Below, piece after piece: positions 2,849-26,396 of a stretch of DNA of 64,000 nucleotides. The stretch's first letter is position 1. Each line of letters opens with the position of its first letter. The stretch lies in the IMG/VR virus record IMGVR_UViG_3300032373_001170, positions 1-64,000 of that record; one strand, 5' to 3'. The notes below the pieces were generated by a model. The model saw only the letters and a list, made by a program, of their open reading frames with translations, ran no database searches and had not been told where the DNA came from. The DNA comes from a virus (taxonomy: Duplodnaviria; Caudoviricetes). The position numbers and the translations under genes are program-made.

Positions 2849-2933
2849 CTATAACAAATAGCTACAGCCGACCCACAAACGCGGCGTTCGTTCCTCACTC
2901 TGCGATTGCGGTCGGCTGAGCATGGCGTTATGT
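2849..2933 (+). repeat. attC-like recombination site (85 bp)
   Basis: CTATAAC-AAATA-GCT(A)CAGCCGACC...GGTCGGCTGAGC-ATGGC-GTTATGT: R''/L''/L'/R' layout with one unpaired base in L''. Confidence 0.85.
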
Positions 2934-3134
2934 GGCAAAGCAGGTAAGGCTCACTTCGTCACCGTCAGTGCCTGTCGCTTCAAGTGGCCGCTCCATTCGC
3001 TCGCCACCATCAGTCCCTTCTCTAATAATACACACAGTAACTGGCAAATCGCCGTCAAGCCCAGAAAGGAACTCCCGCAACTCTTTAACATTAAACCCAA
3101 CATCATCATCACTCTCAACTTGTATTGCACACAT
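2928..3134 (-). CDS. Small acidic hypothetical protein (cassette-borne)
   Basis: 68 aa; both ATG and TAA lie within flanking attC core sites. Confidence 0.65.
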   Translation of the reverse strand: MCAIQVESDDDVGFNVKELREFLSGLDGDLPVTVCIIREGTDGGERMERPLEATGTDGDEVSLTCFAT

Positions 3135-3233
3135 AACAATTAGCTCCAGGCGACACCATACCGCGTCGCGTTTTGTGGTTAATTCTAGGCTATGCGGTGC
3201 GCGGTATGGCGCACCTGAGCATGGTCGTTATGT
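3131..3233 (+). repeat. attC-like recombination site (103 bp)
   Basis: ACATAAC-AATTA-GCT(C)CAGG..CCATACCGCG / CGCGGTATGG..CCTGAGC-ATGGTC-GTTATGT; the extra C gives an extrahelical G on the bottom strand. Confidence 0.88.
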
Positions 3234-3545
3234 GACGCTATAAACTTCCCTTTTACCCTCGCTATTTGGCGGAGATACAATTCCGTCTTGCTCCATATTT
3301 TCAATTAATCTAGCTGCTCTATTAAATCCAAGTTTGAATTTACGCTGAATGCCGCTAATAGATGCTCTGTTATTTTCGATAACAAACCTACATGCCTCAC
3401 TGTATTGCTGGCTGTATTCATTATCTGCGCAGGTATCGCATTTGCCGTTATCGGATAGTTTCCCGTGTCGACTGCAAACGCCATTTGCTACAGATAGTAA
3501 TGGAGGGTTGTTAATAGCCTGATTGTTTTGATTTGAGTTGCTCAT
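3228..3545 (-). CDS. Stand-alone FtsK gamma (winged-helix) domain protein
   Basis: YSEACRFVIENNRASISGIQRKFKLGFNRAARLIENMEQDGIVSPPNSEGKREV matches the FtsK-gamma pattern; no motor domain. Confidence 0.85.
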   Translation of the reverse strand: MSNSNQNNQAINNPPLLSVANGVCSRHGKLSDNGKCDTCADNEYSQQYSEACRFVIENNRASISGIQRKFKLGFNRAARLIENMEQDGIVSPPNSEGKREVYSVT

Positions 3546-3551
3546 ATTTAG

Positions 3552-3785
3552 TTACCTAGATAAAGGAAATATCTTAGCTATCTGTACTTCAGTTAATTCC
3601 ACAAAAACCAAATCATCCAGCTTTACATCAATCCATGATCCATCTCCGAATGTTAGCATTTTTTTCGCTGGGTCTAGGGTGCTGCTGCACTCTGCAAATC
3701 CGATCACAGGATGATTTAACCCGTAATTCTCGTGTCCCGTTAACACTGCTGTTACCTCACTCATGATCTTTTCCTCGCTATACAT
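3552..3785 (-). CDS. Hypothetical phage protein
   Basis: 77 aa; start lies in the ACATAAC core at 3782. Confidence 0.6.
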   Translation of the reverse strand: MYSEEKIMSEVTAVLTGHENYGLNHPVIGFAECSSTLDPAKKMLTFGDGSWIDVKLDDLVFVELTEVQIAKIFPLSR

Positions 3786-3810
3786 AACAAATAATTACAG
3801 TAGAGCGCCG
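3782..3810 (+). repeat. Truncated attC-like half site
   Basis: ACATAACAAATAATTACAG resembles the R''/L'' start of the 2849 and 3131 sites; no R' found. Confidence 0.5.
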
Positions 3811-3817
3811 AGTGAGT

Positions 3818-3994
3818 TTATTTGTGAAGAGAATGCGCATGTATGTATTCCTCACCTGCTTTGTTCATTCTGCTATCGAATGTCTCTTTTGTGTCACCAG
3901 ATTTAGTGGCGCATGGTCCTTTTAACGGGCAAGCATTCCCGCAGCTGTGTTGCGAACAAATATTCTTAACTACATCACTTCTATTGTCTTTCAT
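3818..3994 (-). CDS. Small Cys-containing hypothetical protein
   Basis: 58 aa from ATG 3994 (MKDNRSDVV..CSQHSCGNACPLKGPC). Confidence 0.55.
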   Translation of the reverse strand: MKDNRSDVVKNICSQHSCGNACPLKGPCATKSGDTKETFDSRMNKAGEEYIHAHSLHK

Positions 3995-4156
3995 AATGTT
4001 TCTCGATTTCTGCCGCTTCGCTAAAGATAAAAAACGCCGTATTAAATAGGTTAGCACTGACAACACCTTTACCGAACAATACTAAGAGGCCTCGAAGGTG
4101 TTTTGTTTCAGGACTTACAGTGCTCACGCCCTGAGGAAGTGCCTCGCGCTGTATAA

Positions 4157-4519
4157 TTAATCGATGCTTTGTGCCGTTAGAATCGCTCGATTGTGGATGT
4201 GCGGATAGTCTTCACTTAAGTATGTAATCACTACTTCATGCTTTAATAGCTGCCTGAATTCGTCCCAAAGTTTTCTATTAGTAACCTGAAACTCAAATAT
4301 TTCACCACCAACATCGATTTTCCCTACGCCAACTTGTACTACTACGCCGATGACATCAAAGTTAGTCAAGATGCCTTTCCATACTCTCCGTTCATTGTTT
4401 TTCAGCAGTTCCGTTTCATGGTCTTTTTTTAGTTGCTGCCAGCGGTCAAAGCCATAATCATTAGCAGTGATAGCTACGGGCAGTAGGGCGAACATTAGAT
4501 AAAGAATATATATTTTCAT
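4157..4519 (-). CDS. Hypothetical exported protein
   Basis: 120 aa; N-terminal hydrophobic signal-peptide-like stretch. Confidence 0.6.
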   Translation of the reverse strand: MKIYILYLMFALLPVAITANDYGFDRWQQLKKDHETELLKNNERRVWKGILTNFDVIGVVVQVGVGKIDVGGEIFEFQVTNRKLWDEFRQLLKHEVVITYLSEDYPHIHNRAILTAQSID

Positions 4520-4563
4520 TTTTAATCCAGTATATGTGCGTGTGTGTTGCTATTTTTCACCAT

Positions 4564-5058
4564 TTAAACTGCAAGACTATTTGGTTTACTCCGGATTTCA
4601 GAAACTTCTTCATTGCTTAATTCTCTAAGGCCTGGAACCGGTATATATCTGTTTTGCGCATCTTCAGGTACGTTAACTGCCCATTTGTCACCCAAGCGTT
4701 TTAACGAGGCAAAATAAACATTCTTTCCTTCTATAATCGCTTGGGAATTAATTAGTGATCGGAATTCATCAAGCTTGGGGCGCACCATGCTTGCTAACGT
4801 ATGCCGCATAACCTGACCATCTTCAGACGATTCATCGGGGCAGTAATACGGCGGATTTTTATAAGGCTTCCAACCAGGCGGGATCTCACCAGTAAACATG
4901 ACAGCTAAAATTTCCCCGTTTTCTTCAATATATTTGTCAATATCGAGTGATTTCAATATCATCTTTCGTAATGATTCGATCACTTCAAACTCCTTGTAAT
5001 GACTGGTTACGACATTTAGCAAATCGTTTCCTTCAACAGTAAAAAATCTGTAGTTCAT
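4564..5058 (-). CDS. Hypothetical phage protein
   Basis: 164 aa directly downstream of the SbcC-like gene. Confidence 0.7.
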   Translation of the reverse strand: MNYRFFTVEGNDLLNVVTSHYKEFEVIESLRKMILKSLDIDKYIEENGEILAVMFTGEIPPGWKPYKNPPYYCPDESSEDGQVMRHTLASMVRPKLDEFRSLINSQAIIEGKNVYFASLKRLGDKWAVNVPEDAQNRYIPVPGLRELSNEEVSEIRSKPNSLAV

Positions 5059-5069
5059 TTCCGTGCTCC

Positions 5070-7586
5070 CTATTGCTTATAAGCGCTAATATCAATAACT
5101 GCATCAGCCATTTGCCATAGCTCCGGCGTGTGTGAGATAAAAAACTCCTTGTCGTAATCCCCAATCTCAAGCACCTTCCTTTTCATGTTAAAAAATGCGA
5201 GCTTGTTATCCGGATCTAGCGCTCCGTCCAGCTCGTCAGAAAACAATGTTTTTAGCTTTATTGGAGAAAGACTCGCTTGATACAGGGCTATAGCGCGAGT
5301 GATTGCTTCGTTAATCCATACTCGCTGACCTCCCGACATGCATGCGATGTTTTTTTCTGAATCACTTTCGGAATCAAAAACAGTGATTTCAAAAACTTCT
5401 TTCTTTAGCCCGCTTTTCAATGTTTTCTGCGTATCAATTCGAACGCTAAATCTATGTCCGTAACAGGAGACTAATAACTCATTTGTATACGAAGCTAGGG
5501 TAGGGCCTGCATCGTCGATTGATAGCGCTATGATTCCATCAATTCCTAGTGCTGTTTGAAGCTGTGTCCAGATTGCGATTTCATCTTCCAACTTTGTGCC
5601 TAGAGCTTTTAGCTTTTTAGCGCCATACAAAGCCAAAATAACTTGATCCAATTCCGCTTTGGCAGTGGCAATAATGTTATTTTGTTTTTCAATAAAAAGA
5701 TCGAGACTAGCAAGCTCTGTATCTGCTGAGGATAATTCCTTTTCAGCCTGCTCTAGTCCACTAGCCTCGACAGGAGGGGGTAATCGTTTTAATTCGGTTT
5801 CAATACTGGAAATCGCGTTATCTCTTATTATCTGCGCGTCAACTTTTCTCTGATCTAATGCTTTCTTTGCTTCACCTTCGCTAATAACTAGCTGGTTAAT
5901 CTGTATCTCAATTTCTTTGATCGATGAGTTTGCAGTATTGATTAAATCTTTAATGGATGCTTGTGATTCCTGCGCTTTCACAATTAATGATTCGTTATGC
6001 TCTATTACATCCGTAGCGTCATTTAAAGATTCCGTGAGGGCAGTAATTTTATTGTTCTCATCGATATCTGATTGTGCGGTGTCGATCTGTTTTTGTAGTC
6101 TGGTTAATTGCTCTTGGGGATTTCCAAGAGCGGCAATTTCCCCTGTTATTGCCTTAATATCTTTTGCGAACGCTTCATATTCTGTTCTTGCCTTATTTAG
6201 TTCAGCGTTAACTGCGACGCATTGATCTTTCGCTTTGATCGCGTTTTCTAATAGCTTGCAATTGATTTGCATATCGCTACCTTGACAGGGTACTTCGCTG
6301 CACAGCTGCGCTCTAAGCTCATAGTCTTTAAGCTGTTCAGTTTTCGATGTACCTTCCGATGCAAGCTTCTGAGCCTTAACAGCCAGTTCGCTACGCTGAT
6401 CAAAGAGCGCCTGAATTTTAATCACATCTGATCGTAATTTCTCCCGTTCTTTGATAAGGTCAGCTAAAGCCTCATTAAGGCCAGGCGATTTTTGCTGGGC
6501 TGAAATAATCACAGGTTTCTTACAGATTAAATCTTGTTGTCGCTTAATTTGTTGGCTATATCCGGCTATTTGCTGGTCATACGAGCTGGACTGAGTTTTG
6601 TAACTGGCTATCTGACTAGCCAGCCCTTTTATTGCCTTCGCTTTTTGATCTTTTTCGTTTTCGCTTCTATTTCTAAGTGAGTGTATATCCGAATCAACTT
6701 CACTAAATTTATCTTTCAGTTGCTTTTCGGTAAATATTTTACGAGAATCTAAGTCATTTCGGCGTATTTCAACTTCAGTATTTTGATTGTTCTCGGCTTG
6801 TAAATCGGCAACTCTCCGTGTAGCTGCTTGAACTTTATTTCTCGCGATAGGTTGATCAAGCTTGGCCTTATCGAGCATCCTCTCTGCATCGTTTACAGTA
6901 TTCGTTAGTGCACTTTTTTTGGATTCGTTTTCAGCTGCTGCACTAAGATCTGACTGCATCAGAGACAGCTTCATCTGCAGGCCTTTTTTAACGGTGCCAG
7001 CTTTCTGTCCTAACTCAACTACTTGGTTCATGTTTAGCAATTCTGACATTAACGACTTAATATCACCATTGTCATATGTTGATATAGCAGGTCTACCTTG
7101 AGCAGCAAATTGTGAAGTAAAGAACATTTCTGGTGTGCCTAGCAGACTATTTATACAAGCGTCGTATGTTGTTGACTTACCATCGCTCACTAAGCCATTC
7201 TCTGCTGTGAACGGTTCCCAGTTTCCCTCAGCATCCTGGTAAAATAGATATGATTCTGTTTTTTTAGTTCTGTTCGCCCCTTTAATTACAATTGACGATC
7301 GATAGAGAACTCCGTTATCTGAGAAAACGAATTCCTTTTCAGCGTTGCCTATTGTTTCATCGTAATAACTGAATGATCCCGGAGAATAATTTTTCACTTT
7401 TGACGGCATAATGCGGTATGGCTGCATATTATCTATAACTGTTGTTTTCCCAGCACCGTTGTGACCGATTACAGCTATTAATTTTGCGTCGCCAACCAAC
7501 TCTTCAAAGTTCAAATAAAGCTCGTCTCTATTTAAACCGTCCTTGATGCCTATAAAATGTTTTAATCTTACACTTATTGGTAGCAA
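5070..7586 (-). CDS. SbcC/Rad50-like SMC ATPase
   Basis: Walker A GHNGAGKT, long coiled coil with central CSEVPC hook-like motif, signature MSGGQ, Walker B/D-loop FSDELDGALD, H-loop ISH. Confidence 0.92.
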   Translation of the reverse strand: MLPISVRLKHFIGIKDGLNRDELYLNFEELVGDAKLIAVIGHNGAGKTTVIDNMQPYRIMPSKVKNYSPGSFSYYDETIGNAEKEFVFSDNGVLYRSSIVIKGANRTKKTESYLFYQDAEGNWEPFTAENGLVSDGKSTTYDACINSLLGTPEMFFTSQFAAQGRPAISTYDNGDIKSLMSELLNMNQVVELGQKAGTVKKGLQMKLSLMQSDLSAAAENESKKSALTNTVNDAERMLDKAKLDQPIARNKVQAATRRVADLQAENNQNTEVEIRRNDLDSRKIFTEKQLKDKFSEVDSDIHSLRNRSENEKDQKAKAIKGLASQIASYKTQSSSYDQQIAGYSQQIKRQQDLICKKPVIISAQQKSPGLNEALADLIKEREKLRSDVIKIQALFDQRSELAVKAQKLASEGTSKTEQLKDYELRAQLCSEVPCQGSDMQINCKLLENAIKAKDQCVAVNAELNKARTEYEAFAKDIKAITGEIAALGNPQEQLTRLQKQIDTAQSDIDENNKITALTESLNDATDVIEHNESLIVKAQESQASIKDLINTANSSIKEIEIQINQLVISEGEAKKALDQRKVDAQIIRDNAISSIETELKRLPPPVEASGLEQAEKELSSADTELASLDLFIEKQNNIIATAKAELDQVILALYGAKKLKALGTKLEDEIAIWTQLQTALGIDGIIALSIDDAGPTLASYTNELLVSCYGHRFSVRIDTQKTLKSGLKKEVFEITVFDSESDSEKNIACMSGGQRVWINEAITRAIALYQASLSPIKLKTLFSDELDGALDPDNKLAFFNMKRKVLEIGDYDKEFFISHTPELWQMADAVIDISAYKQ

Positions 7587-7634
7587 TGTATTTCCCTCAC
7601 TATTATTTTATTAAACGGTAGTAAATAGCAACCA

Positions 7635-8879
7635 TTAAGCAGCTGTTAAAATTCTTTCTTGATCGATTAACGTTTCCAGTATCTCATCAGAATCAAGTGA
7701 TTCGAGCAAAAGCAATCGTTCCTGGAGCGGTGCTGGTTTTATTTCTGTTGTATCTGCCCATTTAGCCAGCTTGGATGTAAGAGATACATCGGTATTTATT
7801 CCGCTCGCTCTTGTTCGCTGTATGGGATTGATAATCCCCTCGACTTTGCACATTTCAGCGCCAGCTTTGAGGAAAATATTTTCTATTTCCTTTTTATCAA
7901 TTGAGCTTCTAAATTCTTGGTCAACGTGGTAGCGAATTCGCACGTGAGCACCTTTTGCTTGTTGTGCTATGTCGTTGAGTTCAACCATATCTGGTACACC
8001 GTCAAAGTTAGCTTGCAAGAGTGTTTTAGCAGGTGTTTTAATGAATTCTGTAGTCACAGCATCGGAATCGACACCCCAAATTATAAAGCCCTTATCTGTT
8101 AGTTCACCGAAATGAAGTCGTCCAATTGAGCCGGCGTAAGCAATGATTCTTCCCTGATCCTCCCACTCCTGGTACTGATGAATATGACCGATCATATTTG
8201 CTACTGCTCCAGCAGCGAATATTGCCCCGGTGGTAAATTCGTGATCGGTGCCAGCCATCGGAACACCTTGCTCAGTGATGCAGCCAGTTATTGTTCCATG
8301 AGATGTAAAAACAGTTGCTAGTCCAGTAGCGCGAGCTTTTAAGTTGCTACTGTTCCAACCTTTGCAAATATCTAGCACATAATCCCCAACAGCATCAGCT
8401 GCATCTTTGACACCGACTGTTCCGGCTAACTTTGCTTTGTTGATGGTTGGTAGGCATGAAAAAAGCGCTTTACTGTTAGAAGGGATTTCTTCAAATCCCC
8501 ATGCATCAGACTGGATCCATGTATTATCGTTTGTCAGCACGACTTGTGAAATAGAATCAGCGACATGTATAGGAAAGTTTCCGCCTAGTGTTTTCAGCAC
8601 GTCAAGTGAACCAGGTGTATCATGCGAATAAGTCCCTTGGAGCACAAGGCCTGGCATTACTTCAGTTAATCGTTTTAGTTGAAGCAGCATTGCGGCAACT
8701 ACAGCTGCGTTCAAATCGATTCGTAAATCAGTCAAATCCCCAGAAATCAAAAAGGCATCACATTTATTTTCAATAGCCTGTGCTACGGCAAACTCGAAAC
8801 ATCGAGTGACTTCGCTTAGGTACTTTGGTGAATAGTGTACGTCAGAGAAGTGTGCAATTTTTAACATTCTATTATCCAT
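7635..8879 (-). CDS. SbcD/Mre11-like metallophosphoesterase nuclease
   Basis: FSDVH, SGDLTD, QGTYSHD, SHG and GHIH motifs; adjacent to the SbcC-like gene; start set at ATG 8879. Confidence 0.88.
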   Translation of the reverse strand: MDNRMLKIAHFSDVHYSPKYLSEVTRCFEFAVAQAIENKCDAFLISGDLTDLRIDLNAAVVAAMLLQLKRLTEVMPGLVLQGTYSHDTPGSLDVLKTLGGNFPIHVADSISQVVLTNDNTWIQSDAWGFEEIPSNSKALFSCLPTINKAKLAGTVGVKDAADAVGDYVLDICKGWNSSNLKARATGLATVFTSHGTITGCITEQGVPMAGTDHEFTTGAIFAAGAVANMIGHIHQYQEWEDQGRIIAYAGSIGRLHFGELTDKGFIIWGVDSDAVTTEFIKTPAKTLLQANFDGVPDMVELNDIAQQAKGAHVRIRYHVDQEFRSSIDKKEIENIFLKAGAEMCKVEGIINPIQRTRASGINTDVSLTSKLAKWADTTEIKPAPLQERLLLLESLDSDEILETLIDQERILTAA

Positions 8880-9954
8880 TGTTGTCGCCTTCAGGTGATG
8901 GGAATTCTGGCATTTCAAAACTGTTGTCTAGCCCGTTATTTTCTATCGCCTCACTGGGGGCGGTGGATGTGTTTTCTAATGCCTCATATGCTTCAGTCGC
9001 TTTCTCCGAAAGAGTATCTTCATCATTAAATGACTCTGATAAGAATAAAAGCTCTTGATCAACTTGTACTTCAGTTAGCCATTGTTTAACTTTTATGGGT
9101 TGCTTTGTTTGCGGATCCAGCATAGAAACCATGCGCTGAACCTTGGTTACATAAAATATTGGCTTACCCTGTTCAAAACCGGAAATTCTACCGCGCTTAA
9201 AGGATACTTGTGCTAGCTGCTGGCGTATCTCACTTAGTGCATAAAAAGACCGAGTGGAGAGTTCGATAAGAAGCCCCCTCGGTACTTTTGGTATATGGAA
9301 GAATAACGATCCAGATAACGTGCAGGCGCGTGATTGGTACTCACGGCACGAGCCAGGAATGCATTCACCATTATTTTCATTGCGAAGTATGATATTACGA
9401 CCACCGAATTGTCGCGCCCCTCTGTTATTTGAGGTATTAGGTTGCAGTGGCTCGTACATTTTACAAAAACGATTACCCACTGAATCGTACTCCGACCAGT
9501 ACTGCAAACCTTTCGCGCCAAAACATTTGAGAGCATGAGGCAATGCCGAGTAGATATCATCTGTTGAAAAGTATATAGGGAAAGATTTCAGCACTCGACC
9601 GTCTTCGGTGTCAGTACCGTATTCATCCATAATGAGCTTTGCTACTTCCGGATCGGAAAACTCTCGCGCCTTAACTGTAAAATATGGAACATTTCTGGGT
9701 GTAAGGGGGTGTGCTTTGGAGTCGCCTAAATGAGTTCTGATTCGCTGCACAATGGCTTCATTGGAAGCCCCAGCCTCAGTTCCTTTATCAAAAATATTCT
9801 GAACACCAGGCTTCGCGGCGGCAGCGCGAGTGAGGACCTTAATGCCAGCGCGTATTTTCCCTGATGCTCGTAAAACGGGTTTGTGTGAACCAAGAATGTC
9901 GTTTTTATGTAAAGGGGGTGGATGTCCTTCTGATGTGTGCACGATAGCATTCAT
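8872..9954 (-). CDS. Gp3-like / recombination directionality factor-like protein
   Basis: GKIRAGIK start, Cys cluster CIPGSCREYQSRACTLSGSLFF and acidic tail resemble the phiBT1 gp3-like family (recognised by eye). Confidence 0.55.
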   Translation of the reverse strand: MNAIVHTSEGHPPPLHKNDILGSHKPVLRASGKIRAGIKVLTRAAAAKPGVQNIFDKGTEAGASNEAIVQRIRTHLGDSKAHPLTPRNVPYFTVKAREFSDPEVAKLIMDEYGTDTEDGRVLKSFPIYFSTDDIYSALPHALKCFGAKGLQYWSEYDSVGNRFCKMYEPLQPNTSNNRGARQFGGRNIILRNENNGECIPGSCREYQSRACTLSGSLFFHIPKVPRGLLIELSTRSFYALSEIRQQLAQVSFKRGRISGFEQGKPIFYVTKVQRMVSMLDPQTKQPIKVKQWLTEVQVDQELLFLSESFNDEDTLSEKATEAYEALENTSTAPSEAIENNGLDNSFEMPEFPSPEGDNNG

Positions 9955-9956
9955 TT

Positions 9957-10481: not shown

Positions 10482-11015
10482 TTACGTTGCTAGATAAATA
10501 AATTTACCTATAATTTCTTGAGTAGGGTCTTTATTTTCCGCAAGGCATTCGATGTACACTGTAATTATAAGTTTGGCGAACACTTTAGCTTTGAGCTTAA
10601 TTGAGTGCTCCTCAATATATGTGACAACAGCTTCAATTACTTTTTCAAACAGCTCTTTTTGTCCAGAAGAAAGCTGGAGATACTCTAGTTCAGCTGAGTC
10701 TTTGCGAGCATTTTGTTGTAAGAAAGCAGCGTTTCCAGTCACTTTAGCGACATATTTATCGAATTCTGGCCGGATGTCGGTCGGTTTTACGCCTAGCAAT
10801 TCAGCCCATTTTAAGACTGCGTTCACGCTGAGTGGCGTGTGCGCGTTCAGGTGTTGACTTACAATTCCTTGACTCTTGAACCCCATATCCTCGGCAATTT
10901 CATCTTGATTTATGCCTGGGTGTCGTAATTTCCAAGCCCTGTATAGGCGAGACAAGTTTTCAGATGCGCGTATGTCTTCTTGGGTTAGCGGTTTTCGATT
11001 TCTTTTGTTACCCAT
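10482..11015 (-). CDS. cI: CI-like phage repressor (HTH, no S24 peptidase domain)
   Basis: Lambda-CI-like HTH (INQDEIAEDMGFKSQGIVSQHLN); divergent from the cro-like gene. Confidence 0.8.
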   Translation of the reverse strand: MGNKRNRKPLTQEDIRASENLSRLYRAWKLRHPGINQDEIAEDMGFKSQGIVSQHLNAHTPLSVNAVLKWAELLGVKPTDIRPEFDKYVAKVTGNAAFLQQNARKDSAELEYLQLSSGQKELFEKVIEAVVTYIEEHSIKLKAKVFAKLIITVYIECLAENKDPTQEIIGKFIYLAT

Positions 11016-11049
11016 CTTGAGTTACCTGGAGGTTGAACGTCGTGAATAT

Positions 11050-11070
11050 ACTATTTGCACTACTAATACA
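11050..11070 (+). promoter_or_regulatory. Putative repressor operator
   Basis: ACTATTTGCACTACTAATACA resembles the operators at 10338 and 11100. Confidence 0.5.
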
Positions 11071-11090
11071 AAAATAGCTGGACAAAAGTC

Positions 11091-11120
11091 TTGACTAAGA
11101 ATATTCGACCACCTAATATT
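11091..11120 (+). promoter_or_regulatory. PR-like promoter with overlapping operator
   Basis: TTGACT-17 bp-TAATAT; operator AATATTCGACCACCTAATATT at 11100-11120. Confidence 0.7.
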
Positions 11121-12344: not shown

Positions 12345-13127
12345 ATGATGGCAACGGTAAAAGTAAAAGACTGGCCAAAATGGCAGACATACCGAAAAGA
12401 TCGCGGCACACCACCATGGATAAAAGTGTATCGGAATCTCATGAGCAATCCAGAATGGGCAGATTTAACCGATGCCGAAAAGGGGCAGTTAGTGTCAATG
12501 TGGATTGTAGCCGCAGATAAAGAAGGTGATTTACCTGGTGATTCACGGATTCTACAAAAAATGTGCATGCTTGATGAGCAGCCAAACGTCAACAGATTCA
12601 TTGACTTAAAGTTCTTAATGCGAGTCGGTTGCCAAAGTGACGCCAGAGTGACAACAGATGGTCACCCCAAAGGTGTCGAGCTGCCAACCAAAAACAAGCA
12701 AAGTGACGCACCAGAGACAGAGACAGAGACAGAGACAGAGACAGAGACAGAGACAGATAAAAACACTACCTCGCCAAAAGAAATTGACGAGAAGGATTTG
12801 GAAGTTGCTACGCACATTTATAATGGACTTCTAAGAATCAACCCGAAGCATGACAAGCCAAATTACACTGCATGGGCCAAAGATGTTCGATTAATGCGAG
12901 AAAGAGATAGGCGGACGCATGACGAAATTAAAAATCTATTTGATTGGGCAAATAATGATTCGTTTTGGCAGACAAATATTCTTTCACCGTCAAAACTTCG
13001 GAAACAATGGAATCAACTGACTATCAAGCGAGGTGTGTCAAAAAATAATAAGCACAGTGGCTTTAAGGAAAGGGATTATTCACAAGGAACAGATGAACTC
13101 AAAGACCCTAAATGGGCTGAAGAATGA
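12345..13127 (+). CDS. Phage replication initiator (lambda O-like C-terminus)
   Basis: N-terminal WIKVYR..EWADLTDAEKGQL; C-terminal WANNDSFWQTNILSPSKLRKQW; followed by a DnaC-like ATPase. Confidence 0.85.
   Translation: MMATVKVKDWPKWQTYRKDRGTPPWIKVYRNLMSNPEWADLTDAEKGQLVSMWIVAADKEGDLPGDSRILQKMCMLDEQPNVNRFIDLKFLMRVGCQSDARVTTDGHPKGVELPTKNKQSDAPETETETETETETETDKNTTSPKEIDEKDLEVATHIYNGLLRINPKHDKPNYTAWAKDVRLMRERDRRTHDEIKNLFDWANNDSFWQTNILSPSKLRKQWNQLTIKRGVSKNNKHSGFKERDYSQGTDELKDPKWAEE
12633..12709 (+). other. Putative origin iterons within the initiator gene
   Basis: CAAAGTGACGC at 12633 and 12699, plus related AGTGACA and inverted GTCAC between them. Confidence 0.45.
12714..12755 (+). repeat. (GAGACA)7 tandem repeat encoding (ET)7
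   Basis: Seven exact hexamer units, in frame. Confidence 0.95.
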
Positions 13128-14751: not shown

Positions 14752-14925
14752 GTTAATTGGTAGCTATATACAACCATTTGAAGTTGGAGGAAATATGTTG
14801 AGAAGAAAAAGTGATTTGCTAGCGAAGAGAACTAAGCTTCAGCATTTTTTTACATTGTGCATGCTGGGTTACTTTATCCTGGTGGCCAAAGCTCTTTTTG
14901 ATTGGGTATTGGCGTTGGGAATGCA

Positions 14926-15453
14926 ATGAGTGACGATGAGATGATGCTTGACATGTATTCCGTGCCAGGCGATGAAGATGTAAATCCTAGAGCTTATTAC
15001 GACCAGCTGTTAGCTGACTGTCCAGAACATAGTGATTTAGCAGATGGTGAGGCAGTTGTTGATTTTCTTTTTGTTCGCGATCCCGTTGTGATGCAGGGAA
15101 GGGAGGTTTTAGGGGCGGTTCATTTACCTGCGGTTCAAGGTAAGTTAAAAAAAGTTTTCCTGTGGATGATTATCAGCTTATTCGGACGGCTGCCCGATTT
15201 TCTTGTAACGATTGACAAACAATATTGGGATAGTGGTAGCGAAATAGATCAAGAAATACTTATTTACCATGAGATGTGTCACATGATACATCAGGTCAAT
15301 AACGAAGGTGAGCTTAGGTTTGATTTGTATGGTAATCCTATATGGGGATTACGAGGGCATGACGTTGAGGAGTTTACTCAAACAGTCCAGCGTTACGGTG
15401 CGTACAGCAACGAAATTAGGGAGTTTATCAATGCCGCAAATAGAAAAGACTGA
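14926..15453 (+). CDS. Putative phage metallopeptidase
   Basis: LIYHEMCH (HExxH) and GHDVEEF..V.RYG. Confidence 0.75.
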   Translation: MSDDEMMLDMYSVPGDEDVNPRAYYDQLLADCPEHSDLADGEAVVDFLFVRDPVVMQGREVLGAVHLPAVQGKLKKVFLWMIISLFGRLPDFLVTIDKQYWDSGSEIDQEILIYHEMCHMIHQVNNEGELRFDLYGNPIWGLRGHDVEEFTQTVQRYGAYSNEIREFINAANRKD

Positions 15454-19052: not shown

Positions 19053-19062
19053 GTGAAGATCG

Positions 19063-19230: not shown

Positions 19231-19312
19231 TGTGCGAAATGATATGGCTAAAGATGATTTGCGACGACTGGTTAATTTCGATTGTACTAGATAGATTCTA
19301 TGGAGGTAATTA

Positions 19313-19501: not shown

Positions 19502-19513
19502 TTTGAAAATTTT

Positions 19514-19720: not shown

Positions 19721-20057
19721 AAATATGAGCTTCGCTCTTACTAAAGAGCAAATAAAGAATAGAACCAAATTTGTGACCAGACGTTTTGGTTGGCTTTTCT
19801 TAAAACCCGGTGATGTTTTAAATGCTGTAGAGAAGTCTATGGGGCTGAAGAAAGGTGAAAAAGTGAAAAAACTTGCGCTTATCCGAGTGATTTCTGTCGG
19901 AGAGGAGCCTCTAAGTGAAATCACAAAGGAAGATTGCATCCTGGAAGGCTTTCCAGATTACGAACCTGTAGATTTCGTGAATATGATGATCGATCATTCT
20001 CAGGGGAAAGTTAAGCCTGACGATGAAGCAAATAGGATTGAGTTTGAATACATTTAG
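19710..20057 (+). CDS. ASCH-domain protein
   Basis: MSFALT..I..RTK.VTRR.GW..LKPGD...EITKEDCILEGF. Confidence 0.8.
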   Translation: MMPRNMSFALTKEQIKNRTKFVTRRFGWLFLKPGDVLNAVEKSMGLKKGEKVKKLALIRVISVGEEPLSEITKEDCILEGFPDYEPVDFVNMMIDHSQGKVKPDDEANRIEFEYI

Positions 20058-20102
20058 TTCTTCATTCAGTTAGCTTGAGGAATTTGCATTGGGGTTTTTA
20101 TT

Positions 20103-20351
20103 ATGAATATTTACGACAGTCAAAAGTGGGGCGTTTACATTGCTGGCCCAGGGAATGTGTTAGCAGCGAATACATTTGAGGAAGCTACAGAAAAAGCGGC
20201 AGAATTAAACAAGATAGTTGTTGACCACATAAAATCAAATTATTCAGGCGGCAACTACCCCATTGTTTTTGCTAATGTTGATAGATGGGAAAATATATCA
20301 AAGTTCGAGCACAGCCCAAGCGAAACAGATTGGGAAAATGCGTTTTCGTAA
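20103..20351 (+). CDS. Hypothetical phage protein
   Basis: 82 aa; stop lies in a TAAC core-like context. Confidence 0.65.
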   Translation: MNIYDSQKWGVYIAGPGNVLAANTFEEATEKAAELNKIVVDHIKSNYSGGNYPIVFANVDRWENISKFEHSPSETDWENAFS

Positions 20352-20378
20352 CGCATCTATATGGATAAGGACTAGAGC

Positions 20379-20558
20379 ATGCCCGTGATAAATGTAGAGT
20401 GTCAAAATGAAGAATGCACAAAATATAATGATTACGAATGCGAGTGGGAATCCTGTGCCGAAGGCTCCACTCATGTTTGCGAATGTGATTGCGGGACTAA
20501 AGCGCAATTCACTATCAGTTACCCGGATCCAATTGCTGATGAAGAGCAAGCAATTTAG
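20379..20558 (+). CDS. Small Cys-rich acidic protein (Zn-ribbon-like)
   Basis: 59 aa MPVINVECQNEEC...CECDCG; fills the gap exactly; below the track cutoff. Confidence 0.55.
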   Translation: MPVINVECQNEECTKYNDYECEWESCAEGSTHVCECDCGTKAQFTISYPDPIADEEQAI

Positions 20559-20598
20559 TTTTGGCGTATAGGCTGTATTTATGCAAACAGAGGATCCT

Positions 20599-21342
20599 AT
20601 GATGGGTGATAAAACAGGAATAAGTTGGACTGACCACACATTTAATCCGTGGTGGGGATGCACGAAAATAGCGCGAGGCTGCGACAATTGTTATGCAGCA
20701 ACGCTGGATAAACGAACAGGTGGTGACTACTGGGATGTGAATCAAAAGCCTCGCAGAACAAGCAAGACTAACTGGCGTAAAGTGCTGACCTGGCATAACC
20801 AGGCAGTCAAAGAAAACCGACGACATCGTGTCTTTTGTGGCTCCATGATGGACTGGTGTGATAAGGATGCGCCAGAGGGTGCGTTAACCGATCTCTTTGA
20901 GTTGATAAAGACAACACCCATGTTGGATTGGCAGTTACTCACTAAGCGCGCCACCCTTATTAAACATAGGTTGCCTGATGATTGGGGGACCGGTTACGAC
21001 AACGTTTGGCTTGGTGTGACAGTGGAAGATCAGGAATATGGCAAACCCAGAATTGATGCTCTTCGGAACATACCTGCAAAAGTAAGATTTATAAGTGCGG
21101 AGCCATTGCTAGAAGATCTTGGTGATATATGCCTAGCTAATATTGATTGGTGCATTATCGGTGGGGAGTCAGGGCCTGGGTTTAGAGCCATGAAAGAGGA
21201 TTGGGCAATTAAATTAGCGTTATATTGCAAGTCGTTCAGTGTTGCAATTTGGTTCAAACAGCATGGCGGTAACTCACGCGATAAAGGTGGCGATATGCTT
21301 GGTGGTCGTGAATTCAAGAACTGGCCTAGATCTGCTGTTTAG
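20599..21342 (+). CDS. DUF5131 / phage Gp37Gp68 family (radical-SAM-like)
   Basis: ISWTDHTFNPWWGCTKIARGCDNCYA (CX6CX2C), WQLLTKR, NVWLGVTVE, RFISAEPLL, WCIIGGESG, FKQHGG. Confidence 0.9.
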   Translation: MMGDKTGISWTDHTFNPWWGCTKIARGCDNCYAATLDKRTGGDYWDVNQKPRRTSKTNWRKVLTWHNQAVKENRRHRVFCGSMMDWCDKDAPEGALTDLFELIKTTPMLDWQLLTKRATLIKHRLPDDWGTGYDNVWLGVTVEDQEYGKPRIDALRNIPAKVRFISAEPLLEDLGDICLANIDWCIIGGESGPGFRAMKEDWAIKLALYCKSFSVAIWFKQHGGNSRDKGGDMLGGREFKNWPRSAV

Positions 21343-21374
21343 TGTGAATTTTAGATATTAGTTTTATAAAAGGA

Positions 21375-21719
21375 TTGAAAATGAAAGCATCAGTTAAAGT
21401 AATGAGATCGTATGACTACAATCATTTCGAAGTATCATTGTCTTCTGAAGAAGTTTCATCTTTAGAAGAGGTGGACGATCTGAGAAAGAGTGCTGCCAGA
21501 CTAGTTGATAAGGCCGTCATTCAATATCAAACCTCCAAAAACCATGCGTTAAGAATTCCGGATCAAGAGTTATCTAGGCAAGCAAAAATAATTACGGAGA
21601 ATCATCCGAAATCTGAGTGGACAGAAGAGCAAAAAGCGATAATCAAAAAGCATGAAGATGATATGTACTGGTCTAATCGAATATTTGATTATGAAGACGA
21701 GTGGGATGTAGATAATTAG
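21375..21719 (+). CDS. Hypothetical phage protein
   Basis: 114 aa ORF in operon. Confidence 0.65.
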   Translation: MKMKASVKVMRSYDYNHFEVSLSSEEVSSLEEVDDLRKSAARLVDKAVIQYQTSKNHALRIPDQELSRQAKIITENHPKSEWTEEQKAIIKKHEDDMYWSNRIFDYEDEWDVDN

Positions 21720-21741
21720 ACGAGCGCCAGCGGGAAAGATA

Positions 21742-21999
21742 ATGAGTGCTGTCACTGATAAGGGTGGAAGTATAGGTGATGTTTGTGGTGTGGAGTGTCC
21801 AGCGTGGGTGATGTTTGGCGGTGAGCGCTATGATTACTGCCGAGAAGCTTATTACGAAGATATAGGTGGAGTGCTACGCTGCCAGATGACCGATGGAGAA
21901 ATTCACCTGTCTCCTGGAGTGGTTTACAGAAAAGCTGACAAAAACACTGAAGCGCCATGCTGCGCTGGTGAGTGTGAATACTGTATTGGCGACTATTAA
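21742..21999 (+). CDS. Hypothetical phage protein
   Basis: 85 aa, Cys-rich C-terminus. Confidence 0.55.
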   Translation: MSAVTDKGGSIGDVCGVECPAWVMFGGERYDYCREAYYEDIGGVLRCQMTDGEIHLSPGVVYRKADKNTEAPCCAGECEYCIGDY

Positions 22000-22038
22000 T
22001 AAGCCAGGTTTAAAGGGGAGACATAAAGGAGATGCAAT

Positions 22039-22245
22039 TTGAAAATTAGCAAAGTTATTGAGCGATTGGAGCAAGTGAAAAAAGCTGAAGGAGATATCGA
22101 AGTAACAGGAACATCATCGTTTTTACCGGATGGATACAGCCGAGATGACGGGCCTATTGCTGATGTATTTGAAAGTACCATTGAGAATTTCGTGATTGTG
22201 AATGATTCATCGGGATTAGGTCGCAGAGTTAGGCTGTTTTTATAG
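22039..22245 (+). CDS. Hypothetical phage protein
   Basis: 68 aa; SD AAGGAG upstream. Confidence 0.6.
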   Translation: MKISKVIERLEQVKKAEGDIEVTGTSSFLPDGYSRDDGPIADVFESTIENFVIVNDSSGLGRRVRLFL

Positions 22246-22267
22246 CGCGACGCTAGGTATTGAGTGA

Positions 22268-22771
22268 TTGCTATATTTTTGGAGAATTCAGTTGATAACA
22301 AATAGCTACCAGCCAACTCATCGTCAATTGTGTGATAGAGCAGCTTATTGGTTGCAACAAAGCAGAAATTGTAAGCTGGTTTTAGTGGAGCGAAATTCTG
22401 GAATGGGCGGTGAAGAGCCTGACGCTATTGGATGGACACCTTGCGGGTATAGCTATTTAGTTGAAGCTAAAGTATCGAGAGCTGATTTTTTAGCTGACGC
22501 TAAAAAGCCTCACCGAAAAAAACCACAAAGTGGAATGGGAAAAAGTCGCTTTTTACTGTGCCCTAAAGGAATGATTCAACCTGAAGAAACGCCTGAAGGC
22601 TGGGGTTTGCTCTGGGCTACTGAGCATCAAATTAGGCTTAAAAATCACGACGATTTGGTTAACAAAGGTGAATTCGAGATTGATCAAAAAAAGGAAATGC
22701 AAATGCTTATCCATTCTTACCGAATGGTAAAGCTTGGCGTGATGATTGTGCCGATTGGAAACGAAATTTGA
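22268..22771 (+). CDS. PD-(D/E)xK nuclease-like (MmcB-like) protein
   Basis: EEPDAIGW..YLVEAKVSRADFLAD.KKPHR..PEGWGLL; start uncertain. Confidence 0.65.
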   Translation: MLYFWRIQLITNSYQPTHRQLCDRAAYWLQQSRNCKLVLVERNSGMGGEEPDAIGWTPCGYSYLVEAKVSRADFLADAKKPHRKKPQSGMGKSRFLLCPKGMIQPEETPEGWGLLWATEHQIRLKNHDDLVNKGEFEIDQKKEMQMLIHSYRMVKLGVMIVPIGNEI

Positions 22772-22830
22772 AGACAATAGATTTCTCAAGATACCGAGAA
22801 CCGTTATTTTAACAATCCGAGACCGAAAAC

Positions 22831-23334
22831 ATGAGTGAAACCGCCAATCTAGAATCAAGAAGTGCATTAGCTGCTACCAGAGAAGATGTTGTCATATCGC
22901 CCTGCTCTATGACTACATCACAAAACGAAAATGACGTAGCTGAAGGTCAATCCGTCTCTAAGCCATTGCTAGATTTTGCCTACTCATTGGACGACGAAAG
23001 ATATACAGATTTTGAAAGTATCGTGGACGAAGTTAATTCCGATTATCCAGCAGGTAAAGCAGTGATAATAAGCAAAGGCGAAAAAATACAATACTCTCAC
23101 AGTGATTTCATCAACATCGATGTATTTTTTGAGCTTTTGAATGAAGCAGCTTACGAGGAATGCGGGGAGTATGGCGAAGACTATATGTGCAAAGTAGATA
23201 AAGAAAAGCGCGATGAGCTGAAAAAGATTATATCAGAATGGTTGGGTGAGAATTTTGAAGCGCCCAACTTCTTTACTGTTAAAAACATAACAAAAATGGA
23301 AGTGGTTGCTGTTTGCGCGCCAGAAACTAAATGA
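22831..23334 (+). CDS. Acidic hypothetical phage protein
   Basis: 167 aa ORF. Confidence 0.65.
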   Translation: MSETANLESRSALAATREDVVISPCSMTTSQNENDVAEGQSVSKPLLDFAYSLDDERYTDFESIVDEVNSDYPAGKAVIISKGEKIQYSHSDFINIDVFFELLNEAAYEECGEYGEDYMCKVDKEKRDELKKIISEWLGENFEAPNFFTVKNITKMEVVAVCAPETK

Positions 23335-23690
23335 ATAAAGAAGTGCTGGACTGCATAGATCGGCTGAAGGAGGTGTTCCCGAAATCGTTTATTTACAAGA
23401 ATGACGAGCTGATAGTTGAGCCGAAGAACAATATCTACTTCCGAATTGATGACGTGGAAAGTGAAATCGATTTTAAGTGCAAGATTGTCGAATGGCTATC
23501 TAGGCCAGCACACAAAGGGCTTAGCAAGTGGTGGCAAAGTAGAATTAGAAGCGGGATGAATAAGTTTCTCGGGACAGCGTTCACGCCTGAAGAAATGAGC
23601 ACAATTTACACCCACCTTGGATGCTGCTGCAATCGACAAAAAACAAAGGTCTTTATCTTATCTGGATACGATGTTGGTACATTGGCATAA
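23331..23690 (+). CDS. Hypothetical phage protein
   Basis: 119 aa; stop lies in GCATAAC core. Confidence 0.7.
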   Translation: MNKEVLDCIDRLKEVFPKSFIYKNDELIVEPKNNIYFRIDDVESEIDFKCKIVEWLSRPAHKGLSKWWQSRIRSGMNKFLGTAFTPEEMSTIYTHLGCCCNRQKTKVFILSGYDVGTLA

Positions 23691-23810
23691 CGGTTTAGCT
23701 TACTCGTGCTGTGCGAACTGGAGATTAAACGATGGCAACTGAAACAAGAGAACAACCAAGCAACAGCGAAACGTCGATACGTAGCGTTGATGTAGAGCCT
23801 GCTGTAATGC
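23685..23810 (-). repeat. Degenerate attC-like element
   Basis: GCATAAC-GGTTTAGCT...GTAGAGCCTGCT-GTAATGC (core one mismatch from GTTATGC); contains the SD and ATG of the next gene. Confidence 0.5.
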
Positions 23811-24016
23811 CTACCGCTCATCAGGGCGCAGCGGTTGGAGCACTCAGGATCGCACTGTTGGCGATGGATGAAGCACAGAGACATATCGAAAGCCACTATC
23901 TAAATGACCTGATTTTAAATCGAACCGACTATATTGAGAAACAAGCAGAACTCAACAATATGCGCTTAGCAGCAGCCGAAGCATTAAAGCCTATGTGGAA
24001 AATTGTTGAGGTGTAA
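23732..24016 (+). CDS. Hypothetical phage protein
   Basis: 94 aa; starts inside the attC-like element; stop lies in GTGTAAC. Confidence 0.6.
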   Translation: MATETREQPSNSETSIRSVDVEPAVMPTAHQGAAVGALRIALLAMDEAQRHIESHYLNDLILNRTDYIEKQAELNNMRLAAAEALKPMWKIVEV

Positions 24017-24042
24017 CGTCGCAACTAACAGGAAACAAGCAC

Positions 24043-24237
24043 ATGAGTATTCAGCCCTGGAAACACCCTCCATTAAATGAATGGTCTATTTGCGGAATGA
24101 ACCACTACCACGTTGACGGTGAAAAACGCTTATTTGTATCAATGACAAAAGATGGTAAATGCATTACTGAAGAAGGTGCTGACAACGAATATTTATGGAA
24201 TCGCCTTTGGCATAAAGCTGATATGGGGAGAAAATAA
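24043..24237 (+). CDS. Hypothetical phage protein
   Basis: 64 aa; stop overlaps the next start (TAATG). Confidence 0.65.
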   Translation: MSIQPWKHPPLNEWSICGMNHYHVDGEKRLFVSMTKDGKCITEEGADNEYLWNRLWHKADMGRK

Positions 24238-24515
24238 TGTCAAACACAATACCACCAATAACAAACCCATTAGGGAAACACTGGCAGCAACCCAAGGTCA
24301 GCGAAATTGAAATTGATGATAAATATGCAGTAATGGAAAAGAGTGCATTCAATAAGTTACTTGAGTATTCAACATCAACACCATCTGGTGTGTATATCGG
24401 CAAAATGTGGAAGGGTCAGTACTCAAATGGAAAATGGTATCTAGCTTGGTTTAGTAAAGGTGATGATGCTGGAACGTACTTGAACAATAACTATAGAATT
24501 ATATTAGGCGTATAA
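24237..24515 (+). CDS. Hypothetical phage protein
   Basis: 92 aa; stop lies in GTATAAC core. Confidence 0.7.
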   Translation: MSNTIPPITNPLGKHWQQPKVSEIEIDDKYAVMEKSAFNKLLEYSTSTPSGVYIGKMWKGQYSNGKWYLAWFSKGDDAGTYLNNNYRIILGV

Positions 24516-24580
24516 CAAATAAGCTCATTTGTTGCGAACGATGTACGAGTGAATAATAAATGTGAAGCGCCTGGTTATGG
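24510..24580 (-). repeat. attC-like site (71 bp)
   Basis: Minus strand CCATAAC-CAGGC-GCTTCACATTTATTA...CAACAAATGAGC-TTATTT-GTTATAC. Confidence 0.75.
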
Positions 24581-24594
24581 CGCGTGGAGGAATA

Positions 24595-25500
24595 ATGACA
24601 CAGATTAACCGAACTGGAAGGGTTGTTTTTGGCGATGTCTCTTTGAGTGTATGGGAAGAAGGGCTTGGCGGGTCATTGCAAGAGCGCGCAGCCTGGGAAA
24701 AGTCTTTTAAAAGACAGGTATTCAAGCGGATCATTCAAACATTAAACCGCATAGGTTGGAAATGCGTTATCCCTCAGGATGACATTGATCAGTATGGCCA
24801 GCGATTTGCTGAGGGACGACGCTACTGTGTCAAGGGTAATCTGAAAGCCGACTTATCTATTGCAGGCAGGCACATCGAGCTCAAGATGTTCCAGAATACT
24901 AATGCCCCTGATCGCCCAGACCATGAAGGGCGCTATCAGTTCGATAAAGAGAGGCACATGCCTTACGTAATGCGCCTGGAGATGGAGCGATCCAGGCGGA
25001 AGATTAAAGCTTATTTGTGCAATGTATTCTCCGGGTATGAGTTTAAATCTGATAAAAATGATGGGCGATCAAATAAATGCGGACCAAGTCACATGACAGC
25101 GATGGAATGGCTTGACGGGTGCTACAAGACAAGCTGTCACTTTAAAGGCGACCTAACTACATATCAAATTAGTAACTACAACAGAAAGTCAGCTAATGAC
25201 ACTTTATTGAAGCATGGCCAGCGCGTCTGGTTTGCTGATCGAAAAGGGAGAATTTGCACCGGTATTGCTTACTACAACATTAATAATATGTGGTGGGTGA
25301 TAACTGGGAAATACGATCATACAAACATGGGCTCACACAAACTCTTCACCGTACAACCTGAGAACATTCGGCAGAAGCGGAATGAAAGACAGAGAGAGGC
25401 AAAACTAAAGAACCTATTAGCTGAATCAGTAGAAGCTATGAAATTCGAGCGATCCGTACAACTGCGTGATCTATTGTATCCGGCTGCGATAGCGCCATAA
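24595..25500 (+). CDS. Hypothetical phage protein (cassette-borne)
   Basis: 301 aa from ATG 24595 with SD GGAGG; bounded by GTTATGG and CCATAAC. Confidence 0.8.
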   Translation: MTQINRTGRVVFGDVSLSVWEEGLGGSLQERAAWEKSFKRQVFKRIIQTLNRIGWKCVIPQDDIDQYGQRFAEGRRYCVKGNLKADLSIAGRHIELKMFQNTNAPDRPDHEGRYQFDKERHMPYVMRLEMERSRRKIKAYLCNVFSGYEFKSDKNDGRSNKCGPSHMTAMEWLDGCYKTSCHFKGDLTTYQISNYNRKSANDTLLKHGQRVWFADRKGRICTGIAYYNINNMWWVITGKYDHTNMGSHKLFTVQPENIRQKRNERQREAKLKNLLAESVEAMKFERSVQLRDLLYPAAIAP

Positions 25501-25556
25501 CACCCGGCAATAAAGCGCCGACGCTTAAGGAGGTCGCGTTGATTGCTTGGTTATAC
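25495..25556 (-). repeat. attC-like site (62 bp)
   Basis: Minus strand GTATAAC-CAAGCAATCAACGCGAC..GTCGGCGCTTTATTGCCGGGT-GTTATGG. Confidence 0.82.
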
Positions 25557-26274
25557 GAATTTTGAGGAAGATAATATGAGAGACTATTTTTATCAAATCA
25601 AAGGAAAGGACTCTAGCGAATACGCGAATTCCCCCTGGGCTTGGCCTCCTCTATTTTGCGGAAAAGTATCCGCTCAAGACAAAAAGGAAGCTAAGCTAAT
25701 TATTGAAGAAGAATACTGTAGAAAATTCCCTCTTAGAGTGCTTCGTAAAGATTTGGAGCAGAATCATTACCTGCTAAATATACGGGAGATAGCTGAGAAC
25801 GACCAGCGGACCCGCGATCTTTTTAATTCTAACGAATGCCAGCAGTGCGGCAAGAAGTTTAGACGAATCGATCTTTACAATGACCATAACGAATCATATA
25901 AAGGTAGCGAATACTGCAGTCAAGAATGCAAGCAGACTTATCTTGAATTAAATCGTGTTGTTGAGTTGGATGTGACCGGGAATGGTAAGCCGGTAATATA
26001 CCGAATACGCAACATCAAAACTGATATGTCCTATGTAGGTAAAACCACTCAAGTATTTACATTACGTTGGTACCAACATTTCTACCAAGGAGGAGCTTGT
26101 AAGTTTCATCAAGCTATAAAAGATTCAAATCTCGACGAATGGGAATTTAGAATTCTGGAAATAGTGGATATATCGGATGCGGCTTGTCGAGGTCAACTAA
26201 TCGCTGATAGAGAGCGTTTCTGGATTAAAACATTAGACACTATTGAATGCGGCTATAACAGTGCATTCGTATAA
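25543..26274 (+). CDS. GIY-YIG nuclease-domain protein with Cys-rich linker (cassette-borne)
   Basis: VIYRIRN..SYVGKT..RWYQH..EFRILE..ERFWI..GYN; CQQC and CSQEC motifs; start TTG 25543 or ATG 25576. Confidence 0.82.
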   Translation: MLGYTNFEEDNMRDYFYQIKGKDSSEYANSPWAWPPLFCGKVSAQDKKEAKLIIEEEYCRKFPLRVLRKDLEQNHYLLNIREIAENDQRTRDLFNSNECQQCGKKFRRIDLYNDHNESYKGSEYCSQECKQTYLELNRVVELDVTGNGKPVIYRIRNIKTDMSYVGKTTQVFTLRWYQHFYQGGACKFHQAIKDSNLDEWEFRILEIVDISDAACRGQLIADRERFWIKTLDTIECGYNSAFV

Positions 26275-26396
26275 CGAAAAACGTAACCTGTTCACTACCG
26301 TAACTTTGAACAGGTAAACGACGATGAATTTTAACCAAGGCAAGCACCACAACGAAACCACGCGGTAGTGAATCTGCGTTGACGTGCTTGTTATAT
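26269..26396 (-). repeat. attC-like site (128 bp)
   Basis: Minus strand begins ATATAAC-AAGCACGTCAACGCAGA; 10-bp inner stem TTCACTACCG/CGGTAGTGAA; ends GTTATAC. Confidence 0.82.

Follow-up and report, generated by a model that had tools for sequence, protein, structure and literature searches.

Reversed attC cassettes in both arms of a lambda-like phage and their probable alignment with gene direction

The 64,000-nucleotide window analysed here, the first 64 kb of the 79.8-kb provirus record IMGVR_UViG_3300032373_001170 (Caudoviricetes), contains six supported attC sites, three in its left arm and three in its right arm. At each, the flanking genes lie on the strand opposite to that used in a canonical integron cassette. 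The same polarity recurs in four other phage records; one cassette is common to the window and one of these phages; and the same site family adjoins an integron integrase (IntI) gene in a bacterial metagenome-assembled genome (MAG). Taken in sum, these observations make it probable that the window holds two clusters of attC sites lacking integron integrases (CALINs), built from reversed, phage-typical cassettes whose polarity follows gene direction.

Results

Six attC sites lie opposite to their genes

Three covariance models were built in this analysis, numbered independently of the sites. Model R1 combines 2 window sites with 12 viral sites; model R2 derives from 66 sites at other phage and MAG loci, contains no window sequence, and was run on the window with filters off; and model R3 derives from 12 sites taken only from bacterial MAG arrays with sense-strand genes. 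Together these detect six window sites (Table 1), of which four are firm (L1, L2, L3 and R4) and two are marginal (R2 and R3). Model R2 scores site L3 at 85.7 bits versus 32.9 bits on the reverse strand, and site L2 at 70.6 bits versus 28.0; the corresponding scores with model R3 are 57.8 and 62.9 bits. Site R4 reaches 48.4 bits (E 3e-8) with model R2 and 21.5 bits (E 0.0065) with model R3. A 90-kb control searched with model R2, again with filters off, yields a single match of 11.8 bits, and the score of site R2 (24505-24580) exceeds everything in that control. Model R3 agrees with model R2 on the strand of the five best sites. No further sites were found in the remainder of the record past 64 kb.

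Polarity was referred to the aadA1 cassette of plasmid R100. On its sense strand, the attC has TCTAAC and GTT separated by a 5-nt spacer, next an extra C and the stem, and lastly AAC and GTTAGA with a 6-nt spacer between them. In the canonical cassette, top strand and coding strand are therefore the same, with the extra base in the 5' arm. This geometry falls in the window on the strand opposite the genes. For the supported sites, plus is the top strand in the left arm and minus in the right, and every supported site has its flanking genes on the opposite strand, the reverse of the aadA1 cassette. The polarity thus has the backing of all three models, including two that contain no window sequence, and is anchored on the R100 aadA1 attC.

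The architecture of the sites agrees with that of attC. Sites L2 and L3 fold as long imperfect hairpins between ATAAC and GTTAT, with a fold energy of -19.5 kcal/mol for L2. On the plus strand, both have three pairs after a 5-nt unpaired spacer, and a single extra base in the 5' arm separates these pairs from a long stem. Five sites carry ATAAC...GTTAT and site L1 carries CATAAC...GTTAT; these are the inverted R''/R' cores with the AAC...GTT triplets that identify attC sites. The spacers, of 5 nt on one side and 5-7 nt on the other, also match, and an extra base follows the third L'' pair in L2, L3, R2, R3 and R4. Such an extrahelical base on the L'' side marks the bottom strand (PMC5027507). 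Alignment of the site family reveals compensatory changes in 9 of 22 stem pairs, indicating a variable stem kept by pairing, as in attC sites. A strong hairpin at 2169-2245, between L1 and the 189-aa gene, has neither AAC/GTT cores nor a gene, and could be a terminator or a collapsed site.

A sequence-only reading of this DNA had held that all attC-like sites are inverted relative to their genes. This stands for six of about eight sites, with models R2 and R3 placing the top strand on the non-coding strand, and not on the coding strand, in both arms. The other two are noise. The claimed site R1 scores 12.2 bits with model R2 (E 2.8 over the window), has TTAC in place of TAAC, and overlaps a coding region. 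L4, at 11.4 bits with model R2, is rejected as a full site. The word 'all' is itself too strong because a half-site in sense orientation lies at 22295-22314. There, the first codons of a 160-aa open reading frame (ORF; 22292-22771, plus strand) nearly duplicate the R''-L'' arm of site 2851-2931, and may be a captured attC arm turned coding.

Searches of other kinds bear on these assignments. A mechanical geometry scan of the entire record returns six matches with an R box of at least 5 bp; shuffled sequences give ~4.5 matches when R boxes of 4 bp or more are allowed, which puts the chance expectation at 5 bp near one. Five of the six have ATAAC...GTTAT in common and coincide exactly with gene boundaries; the left arm contributes two, on plus, and the right arm three, on minus. 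Generic repeat and energy scans found only L2 and L3, Rfam at gathering thresholds gave no match in the window, and GTTRRRY counts in the window are at chance level. Exact matches to the 17-mer of the R''-L'' arm occur in 39 viral contigs; about half of these are chance occurrences with no hairpin, and the rest are full hairpins of the same site family. A stricter 22-mer identifies 14 contigs from gammaproteobacterial MAGs. Model R2 found no match in 1.03 Mb from 80 related phage loci (terminase relatives), and these relatives therefore provide no comparison of cassette presence and absence.

The spacing of the sites places both groups among CALINs: three left-arm sites fall within 1.2 kb, and one firm and two marginal right-arm sites fall within 1.9 kb. 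Neither group has the intI and attI beside the array that would make a complete integron. The cassettes also depart from the canonical form, which has a top-strand gene followed by attC, since the genes are on the bottom strand at all six supported sites.

Reversed polarity recurs in other phages and beside a bacterial integron integrase

Four other phage records contain sites of this kind: G006 (64.7 kb), with 7; G007 (43.5 kb), with 10; G008, with 4; and G009, with 22. No IntI was found in any of the four. A boundary test of 41 sites in these records classes 34 as reversed, 3 as sense (weak, doubtful calls) and 4 as undecided. For bacterial MAG arrays, the test gives 11 sense, 1 reversed and 5 undecided. 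Every other phage array examined is reversed, regardless of its position.

G009 is a complete 56-kb phage with terminal repeats, terminase, virion protein, primase, helicase and Erf. Its sites form two mirrored arrays, about 16 on one strand in the leftward arm and 7 on the other strand in the rightward arm, which meet at the gene-divergence point, a layout that matches that of the window. The arrays (G009 loci L064, L065, L068 and L069) span ~15 kb of the early regions, with DNA methyltransferase and primase-helicase genes interspersed.

The MAGs that hold this site family encode IntI above the TIGR02249 cut-off. In one of them, G004, an IntI gene (363 bits, over that cut-off) adjoins the same site family. 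Three features define its arrangement: the sites are just upstream of intI; the attC top strand points away from intI, as canonical mechanics would have it; and the ORFs between the sites nevertheless share the direction of intI and of a lambda-type integrase beside pheST. This array holds the same int-proximal position as the left array of the window. The segment L053:1036-4065 of G004, with the IntI gene between the reversed cassette array and the lambda-type integrase, looks like an integron at the int end of an integrated element. Near-identical attC sites are present at L042:944-1045, L043:4190-4291, L045:4950-5051, L046:951-1052 and L052:115-216. The MAGs with near-identical sites are labelled Piscirickettsiaceae, Acidiferrobacteraceae, Lysobacterales and unclassified Gammaproteobacteria, which could reflect either cross-order cassette spread or binning errors.

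Site arms coincide with stop and start codons

The site cores overlap the ends of the genes that they bound. A TAA stop lies within the ATAAC/GTTAT box for six genes: the 72-aa, 68-aa, FtsK-gamma, 92-aa, 301-aa and GIY-YIG genes. For the 72-aa gene, this stop is the TTA of the lone R' core at 1839-1845.

The other arm coincides with gene starts. Reading the R''-L'' arm of the best-conserved site type backwards gives CTGGAGCTAATTGTTATG, in which GGAG is followed after 9 nt by ATG, the form of a ribosome-binding site and start codon. This arrangement is also present in L3, where the 68-aa gene starts at the CAT of R'' in site 3131-3233 read backwards. Among sites scoring at least 78 bits, the backwards-R'' ATG opens an ORF of 55-112 aa in 15 of 15; the same ATG in bacterial sense-type sites opens only 8-49 codons. 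The half-site at 3782-3800 has lost its 3' arm, yet supplies the ATG of the 77-aa gene. The embedded start signals are presumably used.

The cassette genes themselves are varied. No homologue of the 68-aa protein was found. The 105-aa protein is little beyond an FtsK-gamma domain, and might affect host Xer recombination or chromosome handling. The GIY-YIG gene is placed exactly between two attC-like sites, and represents a second type of mobile gene in a cassette slot.

One cassette is common to the window and another phage

The 72-aa protein is 58% identical to a cassette ORF of G006 (L010:1241-1459). Similarity between the window and G006 at the DNA level begins exactly at G/TTA and includes the R''-L'' arm of site 2086-2175. 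Such a start is what a cassette boundary made by an integrase would look like. In the window, the left boundary of this cassette abuts non-attC DNA, which fits either insertion at a secondary GTT site or decay of a neighbouring site. A host or phage IntI is the presumed agent that moves these cassettes.

The phage and its presumed origin

The record is a lambda-like temperate phage. A DUF4224 gene comes next after the integrase, and the entire left arm to ~11 kb is on the minus strand. Rightward, the gene order is cro-like, cII-like, O-like initiator and DnaC-like loader, and the remaining right arm is on plus. A transposase-like gene (phrog_513) at 14902-15453 (plus) lies within the replication and recombination module of this arm. 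A 108-kb metagenome contig contains an identical copy, with host genes (FolD, protein kinase) directly past the integrase. No near relative was found among deposited phages. For the SbcC-like protein, the sole match is a distant one in Leptospira phage LE1, and no relative of it was found among viral contigs.

The linker of the O-like gene contains AGTGAC repeats and a (CAGAGA)x7.7 run. The latter is a perfect microsatellite at 12712-12757, beside the AGTGAC repeats, and could be a coding linker, iterons or both. Lambda keeps its origin within gene O. By this likeness, the O-like gene is a plausible origin, and an origin near 12.6 kb, as the sequence-only reading had proposed, is plausible on the same analogy.

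Table 1. Positions of the sites, cassette genes and landmark genes in the window. Strand refers to the top strand for attC sites.
Feature	Position	Strand	Remarks
Prophage integrase, lambda-type	1-1056		Only recombinase in the record
Lone R'-type core (G/TTATAC)	1839-1845	+	Left boundary of the first left-arm cassette
72-aa cassette gene	1840-2058	-
attC site L1	2086-2175	+	Model R2 34.7 bits, E 3e-5; model R3 22.9 bits
189-aa cassette gene	2249-2818	-	No family match
attC site L2	2849-2938 (core 2851-2931)	+	Extra base A in 5' arm
68-aa ORFan gene	2928-3134	-	Stop in R' of L2, start in R'' of L3
attC site L3	3131-3238 (core 3131-3233)	+	Extra base C in 5' arm
105-aa FtsK-gamma-domain gene	3228-3545	-	PF09397, E 9.5e-26; stop in R' of L3
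77-aa gene	3552-3785	-	ATG within decayed R''-like box CATAAC
Half-site L4, decayed	3782-3835	+	R''-L'' arm retained (17-mer, 2 mismatches); 3' arm gone
Helix-turn-helix repressor-like gene	10482-11015	-	Faces cro-like and cII-like genes
Divergence point, early-left (-) versus early-right (+) genes	11015-11091		From the ORF map
cro-like gene	Starts 11091	+
O-like replication initiator, presumed origin	12345-13127	+	phrog_391, phrog_2514; internal repeats 12631-12757
Orphan R''-L'' half-site	22295-22314	+	Right arm; sense with its gene; 2 mismatches in 17
Claimed site R1	23680-23810	-	Unsupported
attC-like site R2	24505-24580	-	Marginal; model R2 17.3 bits, E 0.2; geometry scan match
301-aa gene	24595-25500	+	phrog_7674; between sites R2 and R3; stop in TAAC box of R3
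attC-like site R3	25490-25556	-	Marginal; model R2 20.8 bits, E 0.035; model R3 13.8 bits; geometry scan match
GIY-YIG homing-endonuclease-like gene	25576-26274	+	PF01541, phrog_314; between sites R3 and R4; stop in TAAC box of R4
attC site R4	26264-26396	-	Extra base C in 5' arm
gpA-type terminase gene	Starts 27876

Discussion

The reading favoured here is that the polarity of the cassettes follows the direction of their genes. One of the two CALINs sits in the early-left operon at its int-proximal end; the other closes the early-right operon, immediately ahead of the terminase genes. The proposed reversed design has three elements: the gene is carried on the attC bottom strand; the R' box gives a TAA stop to the upstream gene; and the R''-L'' arm of the best-conserved site type, when read backwards, would give a ribosome-binding site and ATG to the downstream gene. 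If expression of such cassettes requires genes that are co-directional with the phage operon, then site polarity must follow gene direction, and two divergent early operons would therefore produce mirror-image polarity. The tie between polarity and gene direction is drawn because all other examined phage arrays are reversed, as is the array of the IntI-bearing integrated element in a bacterial MAG. We infer that transcription direction, not replication, sets the polarity. The mirror symmetry about the origin that had been described for the window holds as geometry; its axis could equally be the transcription divergence point, at ~11.05 kb.

The design may have originated in an element whose intI follows the array and points the same way as its cassette genes, as in the related integrated element of G004. 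Integrase mechanics set the polarity there, with the attC top strand directed away from intI. If intI is read as the tail of an operon that crosses the array, the top strand would therefore be antisense, and only bottom-strand genes would be co-transcribed. In a lambda-like replicon, this layout would also give the lagging template to the bottom strand, which may increase recombination as a by-product.

Several observations weigh against this reading. The window genes are all on minus to the left of ~11 kb and all on plus to the right, such that the directions of transcription and replication coincide and are inseparable. The TIGR02249 profile detects no IntI in the 79.8-kb record, and cassette mobility therefore depends on an unseen host enzyme. 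In the right arm, the embedded start codon is not used and two of the sites are only marginal; here too, the orphan half-site, which forms codons 2-8 of an ORF starting at TTG 22292, is oriented in the sense of its gene. The left arm is identical in the two other assemblies found to carry the 68-aa protein, with no cassette variation among the three. Finally, the strands of phage ORFs in the boundary test were taken from open frames and not from curated genes.

A distinctly less probable alternative is that replication selected the polarity. Under bidirectional theta replication from the O-like gene, the lagging template of each arm would be the bottom strand, and excision or exchange would be favoured during phage replication, for example after SOS induction with host intI expressed. 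Given an origin at 12.3-13.1 kb, the geometry of the sequence-only reading is right for the six supported sites: forks leaving the O-like gene in both directions would make minus the lagging template on the left and plus the lagging template on the right, which is the bottom strand in each arm. Folding and recombination of attC bottom strands are favoured on the lagging-strand template, and in sedentary chromosomal integrons this strand is instead kept on the leading template, limiting excision (PMC8946536). Five phage records were searched for O-like and DnaC-like genes, and G008 alone has an O-like gene; it lies in the arm opposite to the array, with fitting polarity, in a layout that fits both models. 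No data here separate selection by replication from gene direction, and no array was found elsewhere that does so; the origin and the mode of replication are only inferred. No iterons were found at the divergence point of G009, and its arrays flank primase-helicase genes with one polarity, which transcription fits more simply. Lambda-type phages switch to rolling-circle replication, and late replication of this kind would benefit one arm alone. In a prophage, both arms are traversed by one and the same host fork, and the phage is without IntI. Selection by replication is therefore consistent with the data but unproven, and is less economical than polarity following gene direction. The same degree of doubt applies to a broader proposal, that of a phage-run reversed integron. 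Its bottom-strand cassettes would be both the non-template strand of the early operons and the lagging template of outward forks; they would be highly recombinogenic when replication coincides with an SOS-induced integrase; and the two arms would serve as a fast gene-exchange bank shared with bacterial integrons.

It is improbable, to a greater degree, that the hairpins are not IntI substrates here and were instead inherited as intergenic RNA or DNA elements of expression, acting in translational coupling, as terminators or as processing sites. Such a role would suit a phage with no IntI, a conserved arm that contains a ribosome-binding site and ATG, a decayed half-site that still gives the 77-aa gene its ATG, degenerate right-arm sites, and three assemblies with no cassette variation. 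Against it, L2, L3 and R4 retain the full attC geometry of AAC/GTT cores, unpaired spacer and extra L''-side base; compensatory changes maintain the variable stem across the site family; and the cassette common to an unrelated phage has its boundary at the crossover point. The FtsK-gamma domain activates XerD in bacteria, and the presence of an FtsK-gamma-domain gene within the left array raises a further alternative: host XerCD-type recombinases, not IntI, would recombine the sites, helped by the cassette protein, which could activate XerD. This is very improbable. Stand-alone FtsK-gamma proteins are common in phages (PHROG matches), the same site family adjoins a bona fide IntI in G004, and no likeness of the site cores to dif turned up, although no dif-directed comparison was made. 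Of the readings considered, polarity that follows gene direction in two reversed CALINs thus remains the favoured one.

Integrons are treated as bacterial devices, with cassettes read from one promoter on the top strand. If the favoured reading is true, three consequences would follow: phages and bacterial integrons would draw on partly separate, still exchangeable cassette pools; phage accessory genes, maybe including anti-defence genes, would move as ready-to-translate units; and strand choice could tune recombination to the phage life cycle, because the strand governs integrase activity and depends on replication.

CALINs have been described in phage genomes by Qi, Rajabal, Ghaly, Tetu and Gillings in 2023, with 5 of 6 tested phage attC sites recombining with attI1 via IntI1 (PMC9892861). 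As in those elements, the attC sites of the window bound small genes in a phage genome without intI. The published phage cassettes are said to be oriented as is usual in bacterial arrays, or to diverge through mosaicism (PMC9892861). In contrast, placement of the genes on the bottom strand is systematic here and in four other phage records, stop and start codons come from the attC arms, and the arrays are mirrored in both divergent arms. In searches of the full-text literature, no description was found of reversed phage cassette polarity or of start signals embedded in attC.

The sites share their architecture with canonical cassettes, such as aadA1 of In2/Tn21 on R100 and those of sedentary chromosomal integrons: R'' (AAC), a 5-nt spacer, L'' with the extra base, the variable stem, L', a 5-7-nt spacer and R' (GTT). 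Unlike canonical cassettes, those of the window carry the gene on the bottom strand, with attC upstream of it. Unlike canonical integrons, the window has no intI, attI or Pc, and expression must come from the promoters of the phage operons. The replication bias of chromosomal integrons described by Loot and colleagues (PMC8946536) offers a final parallel, in that availability of the bottom strand as single-stranded DNA depends on the template. Chromosomal arrays keep this strand on the leading template, whereas bidirectional replication of the phage from the O-like gene, if it occurs, would assign it to the lagging template in both arms.

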